Shown here: positions 27,378 through 57,554 of the stretch, piece after piece
How the letters are laid out: each line of letters opens with the position of its first letter
How positions within the stretch are numbered: position 1 is the first letter of the stretch
Assembly: GCF_002854065.1 (NCBI RefSeq)
Contig: NZ_CP024147.1
From: Escherichia coli
Lineage (GTDB): Bacteria > Pseudomonadota > Gammaproteobacteria > Enterobacterales > Enterobacteriaceae
Strand: one strand, 5' to 3'
Length of the DNA: 64,000 nucleotides
Made by a program: the position numbers and the translations under genes
Notes under the pieces: generated by a model
What the model saw: the letters and a program-made list of their open reading frames with translations, nothing else
Database searches by the model: none
What the model was told of the DNA's origin: nothing

Positions 27378-28220
27378 ATGCTCAGTTATCGCCACAGCTT
27401 TCACGCTGGCAACCACGCCGACGTCCTTAAACATACCGTTCAGAGCCTGATCATTGAGTCGCTGAAAGAGAAAGATAAACCGTTTCTCTATCTCGACACC
27501 CACGCAGGGGCCGGGCGTTATCAGTTAGGCAGCGAACATGCCGAGCGTACCGGCGAATATCTCGAAGGTATCGCCCGTATCTGGCAGCAGGACGATTTGC
27601 CTGCGGAGCTGGAGGCGTATATCAATGTGGTAAAACACTTTAACCGTAGCGGTCAGTTGCGTTACTACCCCGGTTCACCGTTGATTGCCCGCCAGCTACT
27701 GCGCGAACAGGACAGCCTGCAACTGACCGAACTGCACCCGAGCGATTACCCGTTGCTGCGTTCTGAATTTCAGAAAGACAGCCGTGCGCGCGTTGAAAAA
27801 GCCGACGGTTTCCAGCAGCTTAAGGCCAAACTGCCGCCGGTTTCCCGCCGTGGTTTAATCCTTATCGACCCGCCGTATGAAATGAAAACCGACTATCAAG
27901 CGGTGGTCAGCGGGATAGCAGAAGGTTACAAACGTTTCGCCACTGGTACATACGCACTGTGGTATCCGGTGGTGCTGCGTCAGCAAATTAAGCGCATGAT
28001 CCACGATCTGGAAGCGACCGGTATTCGCAAAATTCTGCAAATTGAACTGGCGGTACTGCCAGACAGCGATCGCCGTGGCATGACCGCTTCCGGCATGATT
28101 GTGATTAACCCGCCGTGGAAGCTGGAACAGCAGATGAATAACGTGCTGCCGTGGCTGCACAGCAAACTGGTTCCGGCAGGCACCGGGCACGCCACCGTAA
28201 GCTGGATCGTGCCGGAGTAA
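27378..28220 (+). CDS. rlmJ: 23S rRNA (adenine2030-N6)-methyltransferase RlmJ
   Basis: Start MLSYRHSFHAGNHADVLKH at 27378; catalytic LIDPPYE motif. Confidence 0.85.
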   Translation: MLSYRHSFHAGNHADVLKHTVQSLIIESLKEKDKPFLYLDTHAGAGRYQLGSEHAERTGEYLEGIARIWQQDDLPAELEAYINVVKHFNRSGQLRYYPGSPLIARQLLREQDSLQLTELHPSDYPLLRSEFQKDSRARVEKADGFQQLKAKLPPVSRRGLILIDPPYEMKTDYQAVVSGIAEGYKRFATGTYALWYPVVLRQQIKRMIHDLEATGIRKILQIELAVLPDSDRRGMTASGMIVINPPWKLEQQMNNVLPWLHSKLVPAGTGHATVSWIVPE

Positions 28221-28291
28221 TTGCAGCCATCGCTGGCACCTATTACGTCTCGCGCTACAATCGCGGTAATCAACGATAAGGACACTCTGTC

Positions 28292-29647
28292 ATGACTAAA
28301 CACTATGATTACATCGCCATCGGCGGCGGCAGCGGCGGTATCGCCTCCATCAACCGCGCGGCTATGTACGGCCAGAAATGCGCGCTGATTGAAGCCAAAG
28401 AGCTGGGCGGCACCTGCGTGAACGTCGGCTGCGTACCGAAGAAAGTGATGTGGCACGCGGCGCAAATCCGTGAAGCGATCCATATGTACGGCCCGGATTA
28501 TGGTTTTGATACCACTATCAATAAATTCAACTGGGAAACGTTGATCGCCAGCCGTACCGCCTATATCGACCGTATTCATACTTCTTATGAAAACGTGCTC
28601 GGTAAAAATAACGTTGATGTAATCAAAGGCTTTGCCCGCTTCGTTGATGCCAAAACGCTGGAAGTAAACGGCGAAACCATCACGGCCGCTCATATCCTGA
28701 TCGCCACCGGCGGTCGTCCGAGCCACCCGGATATTCCGGGCGTGGAATACGGTATTGATTCTGATGGTTTCTTTGCCCTTCCTGCTTTGCCAGAGCGTGT
28801 GGCGGTTGTTGGCGCGGGTTACATCGCCGTGGAACTGGCAGGCGTGATTAACGGCCTCGGCGCGAAAACGCATCTGTTTGTGCGTAAACATGCGCCGCTG
28901 CGCAGCTTCGACCCGATGATCTCTGAAACGCTGGTCGAAGTGATGAACGCCGAAGGCCCGCAGTTGCACACCAACGCCATCCCGAAAGCGGTAGTGAAAA
29001 ATGCCGATGGTAGCCTGACGCTGGAGCTGGAAGATGGTCGCAGTGAAACGGTGGATTGCCTGATTTGGGCGATTGGTCGCGAGCCTGCCAATGACAACAT
29101 CAACCTCGAAGCCGCTGGCGTTAAAACCAACGAAAAAGGCTATATCGTCGTCGATAAATATCAAAACACCAACATTGAAGGTATTTACGCGGTGGGCGAT
29201 AACACGGGTGCAGTAGAACTGACACCGGTGGCAGTTGCAGCGGGTCGCCGCCTCTCTGAGCGCCTGTTTAATAACAAGCCGGATGAGCATCTGGATTACA
29301 GCAACATTCCGACCGTGGTCTTCAGCCATCCGCCGATTGGTACTGTTGGTTTAACGGAACCGCAGGCGCGCGAGCAGTACGGCGACGATCAGGTGAAAGT
29401 GTATAAATCCTCTTTCACCGCGATGTATACCGCCGTCACCACTCACCGCCAGCCGTGCCGCATGAAGCTGGTGTGCGTTGGACCGGAAGAGAAGATTGTC
29501 GGTATTCACGGCATTGGTTTTGGTATGGACGAAATGTTGCAGGGCTTCGCGGTGGCACTGAAGATGGGGGCGACCAAAAAAGACTTCGACAATACCGTCG
29601 CCATTCACCCGACGGCGGCAGAAGAGTTCGTTACCATGAGAGGTTAG
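28292..29647 (+). CDS. gor: glutathione-disulfide reductase
   Basis: 451 aa; FAD site GGGSGG, redox-active [14 protein letters not shown]-terminal HPTAAEE. Confidence 0.95.
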
Positions 29648-54565: not shown

Positions 54566-55013
54566 AAAAGACAACACACTGCTACTGCTTGAGGCAGCTC
54601 TGGACCGTATTTTACGCGGTGAATCACAGAAAATAGCACCATCCCGAAAACTCAGTGTTCGGGCGGTTGAGGTAGAATCAGGACTCGGTAATGGTAGTGC
54701 ATATTACCACACTAAAATTATCGAAAAAATCAAACAAATAAAAAACTCTTCCATAACGACAGGAAGTTTAAATCATCAACATCGAAAATGGAAACAAAAA
54801 GCACTTAAGGCTGAAAAATTAAAAAACAAATTCCGGGATGAAAACATTGCATTAAAATTATTAAATTCACAAATTGCCGCAGATCAGTATAGACAAATGA
54901 GCACTTTAAGAGATGCCTTACAACGTATATTGGAACTCGAAAAAACAATTGAAGAATTGAACATTGAACTGGTTGAGACCAGACGTAAAAACATTACTCT
55001 ATTTAAGCAATAA
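54558..55013 (+). CDS. small coiled-coil hypothetical protein, possible recombination accessory factor
   Basis: 151-aa ORF, basic and coiled-coil rich, translationally coupled to the preceding ORF. Confidence 0.45.
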   Translation: MSKKDNTLLLLEAALDRILRGESQKIAPSRKLSVRAVEVESGLGNGSAYYHTKIIEKIKQIKNSSITTGSLNHQHRKWKQKALKAEKLKNKFRDENIALKLLNSQIAADQYRQMSTLRDALQRILELEKTIEELNIELVETRRKNITLFKQ

Positions 55014-55738
55014 CTCAGTTATAACACAATACGATTTACAATAGATAGTTTCGCGATGATAAGCATTACTGCGTACCGTGAATATCCTACGTTATACAGG
55101 GTTACGGGTAAAAACTATCGGGTCTGCGGTGAGACATGTCATTTTCATCGGTACATCCCCCGTTAAAGGGGAAATTATCTTTCCGGTCTTCATTTTCTTA
55201 ATAAAGTCCAATTTTTGCTCAGTGTCATCCTGGTATCTCTTTCATTTCTGATTATCCCACACAGAGGATTCAGCCAGAAAAGTACATTTTTCAGTTTCTA
55301 TCCCCTCACTCCGGCTCCTCCCCTTTCAACACTGATTTCGGGAAAACAAGCATGCGCCTAAAAAACAATCAAAACAGTCCGTATAAGTTACTTAGGTTGT
55401 CTGCTACTACAATCCCCTACCTTCTCAGTCAGTTGTTTATGGACTGACAGGAAGTAAAAAAGCCTATTAAAAAGAGCAAAAATAAGCAGCTAAACAAACA
55501 GGAAGCCTCTCAATCAAATGATAGTATTCCGAAATCAGCAGTTCAGCATGTAATAGGTACACGAGGGAGTTATGGTCTCTAATGAGTCGAGTTCACCAAG
55601 CACAAGAAGGATGGAAATTGCCGGACACCAAACTCTGGAAAAGTCCCATCCTGCCCAGAAGCCTTCCCCCACAAGGCTTTCCAGTTTTTCTACAGTTAAA
55701 TCGTGTATGGGTACTGCGTGACCATGCGTTAAATGTTA

Positions 55739-55769
55739 AAGGGCTAAGAGTAGTGTGCTCTTAGCCCTT
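55739..55769 (-). terminator. hairpin downstream of dinQ
   Basis: AAGGGCTAAGAG tagtgtg CTCTTAGCCCTT. Confidence 0.4.
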
Positions 55770-55785
55770 AATTACGTTTCCGCTA

Positions 55786-55869
55786 TCAGTTCAGAAGCTG
55801 AAGCAGAAAGCGGATCAGTTCCAGCAGCGCAATTAACGCCCCAAGAACGATGATTGCTTTATCAATCAC
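55786..55869 (-). CDS. dinQ: DinQ small membrane toxin (27-aa peptide; longer in-frame ATG at 55914)
   Basis: Minus-strand translation gives VIDKAIIVLGALIALLELIRFLLQLLN-stop from GTG 55869; below the size cutoff of the ORF track. Confidence 0.75.
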   Translation of the reverse strand: MIDKAIIVLGALIALLELIRFLLQLLN

Positions 55870-55929
55870 CCGTTTTCTCCATGCGATGGAGTGAGAATGC
55901 ATCCGCTTACTCATCCATTGCCTGTCACG

Positions 55930-56020
55930 GCGCATGCCCTATTGTTAGATAATGGCATTCTCACTCCGGCCAGAGCATCAGTTAACGGCACCACCCGTAC
56001 CACTGATCAGGACTTTGAAA
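55930..56020 (+). ncRNA. agrA: agrA-like antisense region overlapping the dinQ 5-prime leader (approximate bounds)
   Basis: 33-nt core GTTAGATAATGGCATTCTCACTCCGGCCAGAGC (55944-55976), repeated 199 bp downstream; part is reverse-complementary to the dinQ leader segment GGAGTGAGAATGC (55888-55900). Confidence 0.4.
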
Positions 56021-56062
56021 GCGTTTATGCGCATTGCCAGAGTGAAAATGCCTCAGAGCTAA

Positions 56063-56078
56063 CTGGATAATCATACAG
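56063..56078 (-). promoter_or_regulatory. candidate LexA box (CTGT-N8-CCAG) for dinQ
   Basis: Minus-strand CTGTATGATTATCCAG about 150 nt upstream of the longer dinQ start. Confidence 0.35.
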
Positions 56079-56129
56079 TATATTCAGGTTATAAAACCAG
56101 CATGTCCTTGCAATAGTTTCAGTATGGTA

Positions 56130-56227
56130 TTAGCATTGATGCGTTAGATGATGGCATTCTCACTCCAGCCAGAGCCACCAACTCAGGGCTGGAAAGTAAA
56201 AAAACCGACGCAAAGTCGGTTTTTTTA
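56130..56227 (+). ncRNA. agrB: agrB-like small RNA with intrinsic terminator (approximate bounds)
   Basis: Second copy of the 33-nt core (56143-56175, 31/33 identical) followed by ACCGAC gcaaa GTCGGT hairpin and T-run (56197-56227). Confidence 0.4.
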
Positions 56228-56334
56228 CGTCCTGATTCAGACCTCCTTTCAAATGAATAGCCAACTCAAAATTCACACCTATTACCTTCCTCTGCACATA
56301 CGCATTCGTTAAACCATATATGTTTTTGACTTAT

Positions 56335-56391
56335 CCGCTTTGGTTTGTAACGCTGGTGGCGCTGGCGCTACGTCTCTCTTTCACTTTGTAA
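56335..56391 (+). pseudogene. arsB: arsB 3-prime remnant (last about 17 codons)
   Basis: ...PLWFVTLVALALRLSFTL-stop closely matches the C-terminus of the intact island ArsB; no upstream arsB sequence present. Confidence 0.6.
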
Positions 56392-56403
56392 TGAGATAAT
56401 GAT

Positions 56404-56772
56404 ATGAGCAACATTACCATTTATCACAACCCGGCCTGCGGCACGTCGCGTAATACGCTGGAGATGATCCGCAACAGCGGCACAGAACCGACCATTATCC
56501 ATTATCTGGAAACTCCGCCAACGCGCGATGAACTGGTCAAACTCATTGCCGATATGGGGATTTCCGTACGCGCGCTGCTGCGTAAAAACGTCGAGCCGTA
56601 TGAGGAACTGGGTCTTGCAGAAGATAAATTTACTGACGATCGGTTAATTGATTTTATGCTGCAACATCCTATCCTGATTAACCGTCCGATTGTGGTGACG
56701 CCGCTGGGAACTCGCCTATGCCGCCCCTCGGAAGTGGTGCTGGAAATTCTGCCAGATGCGCAAAAAGGCGCG
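56404..56772 (+). pseudogene. arsC: arsC truncated at about codon 123 by IS1
   Basis: MSNITIYHNPACGTSRN... reads into the IS1 terminal repeat at 56773; differs from the island arsC at several residues. Confidence 0.8.
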
Positions 56773-56787
56773 GGTAATGACTCCAAC

Positions 56788-57291
56788 TTATTGATAGTGT
56801 TTTATGTTCAGATAATGCCCGATGACTTTGTCATGCAGCTCCACCGATTTTGAGAACGACAGCGACTTCCGTCCCAGCCGTGCCAGGTGCTGCCTCAGAT
56901 TCAGGTTATGCCGCTCAATTCGCTGCGTATATCGCTTGCTGATTACGTGCAGCTTTCCCTTCAGGCGGGATTCATACAGCGGCCAGCCATCCGTCATCCA
57001 TATCACCACGTCAAAGGGTGACAGCAGGCTCATAAGACGCCCCAGCGTCGCCATAGTGCGTTCACCGAATACGTGCGCAACAACCGTCTTCCGGAGCCTG
57101 TCATACGCGTAAAACAGCCAGCGCTGGCGCGATTTAGCCCCGACGTATCCCCACTGTTCGTCCATTTCCGCGCAGACGATGACGTCACTGCCCGGCTGTA
57201 TGCGCGAGGTTACCGACTGCGGCCTGAGTTTTTTAAATGGCGGAAAATCGTGTTGAGGCCAACGCCCATAATGCGGGCGGTTGCCCGGCAT
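56788..57291 (-). CDS. insB: IS1 InsB
   Basis: 167-aa ORF inside IS1. Confidence 0.85.
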
Positions 57292-57485
57292 CCAACGCCA
57301 TTCATGGCCATATCAATGATTTTCTGGTGCGTACCGGGTTGAGAAGCGGTGTAAGTGAACTGCAGTTGCCATGTTTTACGGCAGTGAGAGCAGAGATAGC
57401 GCTGATGTCCGGCAGTGCTTTTGCCGTTACGCACCACCCCGTCAGTAGCTGAACAGGAGGGACAGCTGATAGAAACAGAAGCCAC
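57210..57485 (-). CDS. insA: IS1 InsA
   Basis: 91-aa zinc-finger/[28 protein letters not shown]. Confidence 0.85.
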
Positions 57486-57554
57486 TGGAGCACCTCAAAA
57501 ACACCATCATACACTAAATCAGTAAGTTGGCAGCATCACCTTACCAGGGATACG

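Follow-up and report, generated by a model that had tools for sequence, protein, structure and literature searches.

Within the 64,000-nucleotide window of Escherichia coli DNA analysed here, positions 55733-56228 very probably constitute, as judged from sequence, the chromosomal dinQ-agr type I toxin-antitoxin locus in a form with a single antitoxin gene. The locus is already known and well studied as an SOS-induced toxin and antisense-RNA system, and the single-agr arrangement of the window is an ordinary natural variant of it. Only one point is mildly new, namely the lineage-specific matching of the dinQ leader to agr.

A megablast search with 55700-56400 found matches in 5,422 of the 5,426 complete E. 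coli genomes, and the matched region carries a dinQ annotation. The annotated order in MG1655 is gor, dinQ (minus strand), agrA (plus), agrB (plus) and arsR, and in our K-12 comparison locus (L001) dinQ occupies 2206-2289, agrA 2564-2645 and agrB 2795-2876. Pairwise alignment of the window to K-12 gives about 95% identity from the last gor codons through dinQ, its leader and the LexA box to the first agr. The two are colinear over the gor-dinQ-agr-ars order throughout, except where a clean gap of 231 bp leaves the window one agr unit short. Past this gap, K-12 homology picks up in the second K-12 terminator and runs into the ars promoter region.

Compared with the described K-12 dinQ-agrAB system (PMC3567139, PMC5066626; RF02891; NF041472), the window has the same DinQ peptide and the same LexA operator, with leader elements 1, 3 and 4, the Shine-Dalgarno sequence and the terminator all identical. 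It shares a divergent agr sRNA of the same fold, an antisense pairing of about 32 nt at the agr 5' end that includes an A.C mismatch, and the ars promoter region as right-hand neighbour. The differences are that K-12 has two agr genes whereas the window has one and is without the 231-bp unit, and that in the window, unlike in K-12, gor and dinQ are parted by a 26-kb island and arsR-arsB is deleted. An earlier note on this DNA had named the dinQ-agr locus correctly, in agreement with both the K-12 alignment and the identity of the DinQ peptide; its observations on the sequence hold where it placed them, but its assignment of the parts does not. The window itself is of little importance, being a textbook SOS-regulated type I toxin-antitoxin locus that had been re-identified correctly but imprecisely.

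The dinQ gene, its promoter and its surroundings

The dinQ coding sequence lies on the minus strand at 55786..55869, with a GTG start (55869-55867), 27 codons and a TGA stop (55788-55786). Read from 55869 to 55786, it runs GTG ATT GAT ... AAC TGA and gives V/M-IDKAIIVLGALIALLELIRFLLQLLN; the frame is nested within a 49-aa ATG ORF at 55786-55935. A single synonymous base separates the gene from K-12 dinQ, leaving the peptide identical, and PGAP places WP_001295215.1 at the same spot in a near-identical locus (L002). The earlier proposal of a 27-codon dinQ toxin ORF is thus borne out by the GTG start, by a score of 54 bits against NCBIfam NF041472 (toxin_DinQ; cutoff 30) and by the K-12-identical peptide. 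By analogy, DinQ is taken to be a 27-aa inner-membrane toxin in the window as well.

The full-length (+1) dinQ mRNA would measure 331 nt (55733..56063, minus strand), its transcription start site at 56063 and its 3' end both being mapped from K-12, for which the 331-nt transcript and the positions of the leader elements have been published (PMC5066626). Position n of the mRNA in K-12 numbering corresponds to window position 56064 - n, there being 13 substitutions and no indels between the window and K-12 dinQ mRNAs. A leader of 194 nt precedes the toxin. At the other end lies the rho-independent terminator stem-loop (SL9; 55739..55769, minus strand), a K-12-identical structure with a 14-pair stem that was picked up by both the repeat finder and a terminator scan.

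The LexA operator CTGTATGATTATCCAG (56063..56078, minus strand) overlaps the transcription start site and the dinQ -10 element, TATGAT at 56075-56070 on the minus strand, which we assigned by reading the sequence. The operator of K-12 dinQ has been described with a heterology index of 4.83 (PMC3567139). The predicted box carries weight because it is base-for-base the same as this K-12 operator, and on that ground the LexA-like box that had been noticed at 56063-56078 is upheld. The pattern was rejected as stand-alone evidence, since the bare pattern is not significant: the 64-kb window has 4 matches where 1.3 are expected, and at least as many turn up in 4 of 100 shuffled sequences.

On the plus strand, a putative agr promoter at 56108..56136 consists of a -35 element TTGCAA (56108-56113), a 17-nt spacer and a -10 element TAGCAT (56131-56136). 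It is orthologous to the K-12 agrA promoter, and its layout is shared by that of K-12 agrB (TTGCAA-17-TAGTAT). A simple sigma-70 scan at its threshold found neither the dinQ nor the agr promoter; the promoter assignments draw on homology to K-12 and on our own reading of the sequence.

To the left of dinQ, the right junction of a 26.1-kb island (29639-55716) falls at 55716..55717, where K-12 gor-dinQ homology resumes (55717); K-12 rlmJ-gor homology spans 27493-29638 on the far side. The island is inserted in the last gor codons, and gor (28292-29647) gains a new C-terminal end, ...TMRG*. An imperfect direct repeat, CGTTACCATG / CGTGACCATG, flanks it. The junction lies 16 nt past the dinQ transcript 3' end (~55733, by homology) and the terminator at 55739-55769 is intact, in keeping with the earlier statement that the island leaves the dinQ locus undisturbed. 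In CUWW06, a near-identical genome, annotation gives the island a DEAD/DEAH helicase, IS2, an AAA ATPase, a site-specific integrase and two arsenic-resistance clusters, one being arsDABC and the other arsA/arsD/arsH/arsR with a sigma-70-family factor. Only 2 of the 5,426 complete genomes share the right junction seen in the window, as does one misbinned MAG contig (L014).

The native arsR-arsB pair on the right of the locus is deleted, the arsR promoter region being joined to the arsB 3' end at 56340/56343 (2990/4677 in K-12 L001), and arsC (from 56404) is truncated by IS1 at ~56772-57539. The adjoining island supplies two new ars operons where native arsR-arsB has been lost. Deletion of arsRB is common in other lineages (e.g. 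L003, L008 and L087).

The direct repeat and the number of agr genes

A direct repeat of 33 nt occupies 55944-55976 and 56143-56175, with 31 of 33 positions identical (94%). This repeat, a 13-nt inverted repeat and the hairpins at 55739-55769 and 56196-56228 were all recovered independently by a repeat finder. The existence of two such plus-strand cores had been reported correctly in the earlier note, which went on to take them for agrA and agrB and named an alignment with K-12 as the way to check this. That alignment, now run, divides the two: repeat 2 does start an agr gene, but repeat 1 is not one, as it aligns to the copy of the core in the K-12 dinQ leader and is without stem-loop, terminator or Rfam match.

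The agr antisense sRNA gene that begins in repeat 2 is 85 nt long (56144..56228, plus strand), and its start matches the K-12 agrA annotation. It comprises a 5' antisense segment (56144-56175), a stem-loop (56164-56193) and a terminator (56196-56228), all on the plus strand. Rfam RF02891 (AgrB) finds one full-length match in the window, at 103 bits against a gathering score of 40, compared with two matches each in K-12 and UTME-3. The predicted fold, with a free 5' tail of about 20 nt followed by the stem-loop and terminator of the Rfam consensus, has an energy of -34.2 kcal/mol (z = -6.4). The gene is divergent from dinQ and does not overlap it, starting 81 bp from the dinQ start site. The two-sRNA arrangement, in which tandem agr genes are separated by a spacer of about 150 bp, is absent from the window, and the inter-agr spacer is missing.

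Repeat 1, at 55944..55976, belongs by contrast to the minus-strand dinQ leader (mRNA ~nt 88-120), where it takes in leader element 2 and the 5' arm of stem S2; its aligned counterpart in K-12 is the leader copy at L001 2364-2396. The agr target G88-A119 corresponds to window positions 55976-55945. In a motif scan, K-12 shows three copies of the core, at +74, +273 and +504 from the dinQ start codon, and the window only those at +74 and +273; the +74 copy in the leader is the 'agrAB repeat of dinQ' of Weel-Sneve et al. 2013 (PMC3567139).

It would be natural to read both 33-nt cores as sRNA genes, agrA at ~55944 and agrB at ~56143, acting via the leader segment 55888-55900, given that two near-identical cores lie on the plus strand, that K-12 has two agr genes and that a weak promoter-like TTGCCT-16-TATTGT stands upstream of 55944 on the same strand. 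We regard this as very unlikely. Core 1 aligns to the K-12 leader copy and not to agrA, and the published account treats that copy as part of dinQ (PMC3567139). What follows core 1 is dinQ leader sequence (ATCAGTTAACGG...), without an agr stem-loop or terminator, and core 1 has no RF02891 AgrB match at E<=1 in 55000-57000, where the match at 56144-56228 was accompanied by nothing but terminator-only noise. Moreover, RNA from a plus-strand core would be identical, not complementary, to dinQ mRNA at 55888-55900. The reading of both cores as genes is refuted by the K-12 alignment. On sequence grounds, we conclude that core 1 is an antisense target on the dinQ mRNA and not an sRNA gene, and that the window holds one agr gene, not two. 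For annotation, the value of this result is that the agr-core repeat inside dinQ is a target site rather than a gene, and that agr gene number differs among strains.

The weak sigma-70-like sequence TTGCCT-16-TATTGT, located on the plus strand at 55915-55950 just upstream of the leader core, echoes the layout of the agr promoter. No terminator follows it and no published transcript corresponds to it; it could be left over from the duplication that gave rise to the repeat.

Structure and proposed switching of the dinQ leader

The four-element switch model and its coordinates were established for K-12 (Weel-Sneve et al. 2013, PMC3567139; Kristiansen et al. 2016, PMC5066626). Transferred to the minus strand of the window from PMC5066626, element 1 lies in the region 56036..56052 (mRNA nt 12-28), whose partner in stem S1 is element 2 (nt 94-110), both in the predicted +1 fold and in the published model; element 2 itself maps to 55958-55970 and element 3 to 55897-55886. 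Stem S2, the 2:3 duplex of that model, has its 5' arm at 55955-55967 and its 3' arm, which includes element 3, at 55888..55900. The Shine-Dalgarno GGAG (mRNA G184-G187), within element 4, is at 55877..55880. The position homologous to the K-12 +44 processing site is 56020 (PMC3567139, PMC5066626).

The two arms of S2 form an inverted repeat, the reverse complement of 55888-55900 (GGAGTGAGAATGC) occurring exactly at 55955-55967 and again at 56154-56167. A perfect inverted match of 13 nt within 600 nt is far above chance, with ~0.003 expected by a rough estimate. The earlier note had observed that part of the core is the reverse complement of the leader segment 55888-55900, which the exact 13-nt match confirms, and had seen in it the geometry of antisense control, which does not follow. 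With agr transcribed from the plus strand and dinQ from the minus strand, an inverted repeat on the plus strand yields segments that are identical in the two RNAs. Complementarity between agr and the dinQ mRNA comes instead from the plus-strand direct repeat, whose two copies are transcribed in opposite directions. The 13-nt inverted repeat corresponds to the intramolecular 2:3 stem (S2; PMC5066626) of the dinQ leader and is not a site of agr:dinQ pairing.

In the minimum-free-energy fold of the window +1 mRNA, nt 12-28 pair with nt 94-110 over 17 consecutive pairs, and in that of the +44 mRNA, nt 164-176 pair with nt 109-97. Elements 1, 3 and 4 are the same as in K-12; element 2 is altered and still pairs with element 1 (17 bp) and element 3 (13 bp). 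The changed leader bases (mRNA 106-111) extend both helices, the 1:2 helix to 17 bp versus 13 bp in K-12 and the 2:3 helix to 13 bp versus the published 9 bp in K-12. Folding of the +1 and +44 mRNAs did not reproduce the published open and closed states of the Shine-Dalgarno sequence, even for the SHAPE-supported K-12 +44 form. The in-silico folds thus back individual stems and not the switch, and what we report from them is confined to the lengths of the 1:2 and 2:3 helices. The longer 1:2 and 2:3 stems could shift the balance of the switch, in either direction.

With the start site, +44 processing, LexA binding, toxicity and antitoxin activity all carried over from K-12 by homology, the locus would operate as follows. 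LexA would repress the dinQ promoter via the operator at 56063-56078, and pairing of elements 1 and 2 would lock the full-length (+1) mRNA. Removal of the first 43 nt, which in K-12 activates dinQ translation (PMC3567139, PMC5066626), would allow element 2 to pair with element 3 through the 13-bp inverted repeat and free the Shine-Dalgarno sequence. Binding of agr to element 2 would undo the 2:3 pairing, so that the 3:4 hairpin closes over the Shine-Dalgarno sequence again, and RNase III would then cut the agr:dinQ duplex.

This scheme resembles that of tisB/istR-1, another SOS-induced type I system of E. coli, with which dinQ-agr has been compared (PMC5066626). There too, a LexA-repressed toxin mRNA is inert before 5' processing, at +42 in tisB versus +44 in dinQ, and RNase III cleavage is triggered when an sRNA, encoded divergently and without overlap, pairs in the leader (PMC5066626). 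The sequences of the two systems are unrelated, however, and tisB has a ribosome standby site instead of a four-element Shine-Dalgarno switch. The dql (dinQ-like) genes of Enterobacteriaceae (PMC5066626) are similar to dinQ in combining a four-element leader with a small hydrophobic peptide. The identical peptide and syntenic position mark the locus in the window as true dinQ and not a dql paralog.

Matching of leader and agr across strains

In the duplicated type I systems zorO-orzO and zorP-orzP, a few bases of the pairing region determine the toxin mRNA that each sRNA controls. Their tandem sRNA paralogs bear a likeness to the agr pair; dinQ-agr differs in that there is one toxin with up to two sRNAs, and the paralog that matches it appears to depend on the lineage.

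In the window, the first 32 nt of agr are the complement of nt 119-88 of the dinQ mRNA. Across the whole 33-nt core, the pairing comprises 31 Watson-Crick pairs, one G.U (U113) and one A.C (C96), and the same A.C mismatch is present in the active K-12 agrB pair. The core includes a variable 9-nt patch, which in the window reads AATGGCATT in the leader and GATGGCATT in agr, and in K-12 AAGAACTCT in the leader, AAGAACTCT in agrB and GATGGCTAT in agrA. Between the window and K-12, leader patch and agr patch have co-changed at 5 positions. Because the patch changed in both copies, the window agr fits its own leader no less well than K-12 agrB fits the K-12 leader, with RNAduplex energies of -58.1 and -58.2 kcal/mol, respectively. 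The energy is -42.7 kcal/mol for K-12 agrA with the K-12 leader and -41.3 kcal/mol for K-12 agrB with the window leader.

The window agr has the promoter and 5' flank of agrA, that is, of the K-12 agrA slot, and a 3' flank of the agrB type. Its promoter and upstream flank thus raise the question of whether it is simply the ortholog of a non-functional gene, for K-12 agrA fails to counteract DinQ toxicity (PMC3567139), in which case dinQ would be held in check by LexA and the leader lock only. We consider this unlikely. The K-12 authors blame the inactivity of agrA on its poor complementarity to the leader repeat, 25/31 compared with 30/31 for agrB (PMC3567139), whereas the window pair has 31 Watson-Crick pairs and one G.U of 33, with the same single A.C as active agrB, and its two patches have co-changed at 5 positions. 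We predict instead that the single agr is a working antitoxin in this strain, because its patch fits this strain's leader.

Among 14 distinct isolate haplotypes, a leader's best agr from its own genome averages -57.7 kcal/mol, against -50.9 kcal/mol with the agr sets of other genomes. When agr sets were permuted among haplotypes, 0 of 5,000 permutations reached the observed mean, a figure that is descriptive since the haplotypes are phylogenetically related. The better-matched copy is in slot B in K-12, GF60 and MRSN346647 and in slot A in 2012C-4606 (B1-type), O157:H7 and E69, as is the single agr of the window; in UTME-3 and E. whittamii, the two slots are about equal.

Roughly 14-17% of complete E. 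coli genomes carry a single-agr locus. Of the 5,426, 3,842 (71%) contain the K-12 inter-agr spacer, and an evenly spaced sample of 59 chromosomal matches held about 40 two-agr loci, 10 single-agr loci and 9 with the agr side only. Nine complete E. coli genomes with a single agr represent three allele pairs, all well matched (-53.6 to -58.1 kcal/mol). A single agr is also seen in E. albertii, SCPM-O-B-8794 and Escherichia sp. E1V33, in each case well matched to its own leader. The window-type leader class, defined by at least 95% identity over 90 nt, comprises 2,232 genomes.

Collapse of the 231-bp tandem agrA/agrB unit during assembly could in principle produce a single agr, and metagenome contigs from short reads that are otherwise K-12-identical (L036 and L044) do carry a fused gene with an agrA 5' part and an agrB 3' part. 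For the window, such an artefact is exceedingly improbable: an identical arrangement with identical alleles is found in CUWW06, an independent complete genome, ~1,584 of 5,426 complete genomes are without the inter-agr spacer, and single-agr loci occur in nine complete E. coli and three non-coli Escherichia genomes. For L036, L044 and similar contigs, short-read collapse of the unit is the most likely explanation. Metagenome contigs, several of them K-12-identical with agrA and agrB fused, were rejected as a source of haplotype frequencies, and our conclusions on copy number draw on isolate and complete genomes only. Copy number of agr should not be taken from short-read assemblies.

A further form of the locus is collapsed, as in PSUO2 (L087; NZ_CP011915.1) and Ecol_448 (L088; NZ_CP015076.1), where it lies at ~743-1000, and also in L009. 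In PSUO2 and Ecol_448, which we read, recombination with an agr repeat has fused the leader repeat straight to an agr body, and the deletion takes out nt 1-87 of the dinQ mRNA together with the LexA operator and the promoters of both dinQ and agr. Such loci account for about 15% of complete E. coli genomes, with 819 of 5,426 (15%) giving no match to the leader region and 9 of the 59 sampled rows being of this kind. PGAP still labels the collapsed locus 'dinQ'. It is probably a dead toxin-antitoxin remnant.

It is tempting to view the 9-nt patch as a lineage-specific 'address' in which the leader and one or more agr copies are kept in agreement, such that the cognate paralog differs by lineage, although we would give this somewhat less than an even chance. 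We suspect that they are kept alike by gene conversion among the direct repeats. A search of the available literature library for variation in agr copy number or patch turned up no population analysis and no account of leader and agr co-varying, the sole mention being in the T1TAdb paper, according to which AgrA occurs 'in some bacterial strains' (PMC8594479).

If the address model is true, the description of agrA as a degenerate copy, drawn from K-12, would not hold in general, and K-12 agrB would not control dinQ of this strain (predicted -41.3 versus -58.1 kcal/mol). Recombination between the direct repeats would also explain the single-agr and the promoter-less collapsed loci. More broadly, the co-variation of leader and agr, the better match lying in slot A in some lineages and in slot B in others, and the collapsed loci together suggest that the conclusions drawn in K-12, with agrB as the antitoxin and agrA inert, are strain-specific. 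The haplotypes offer natural 'compensatory mutants' for the pairing model, which may be of interest to specialists in RNA regulation.
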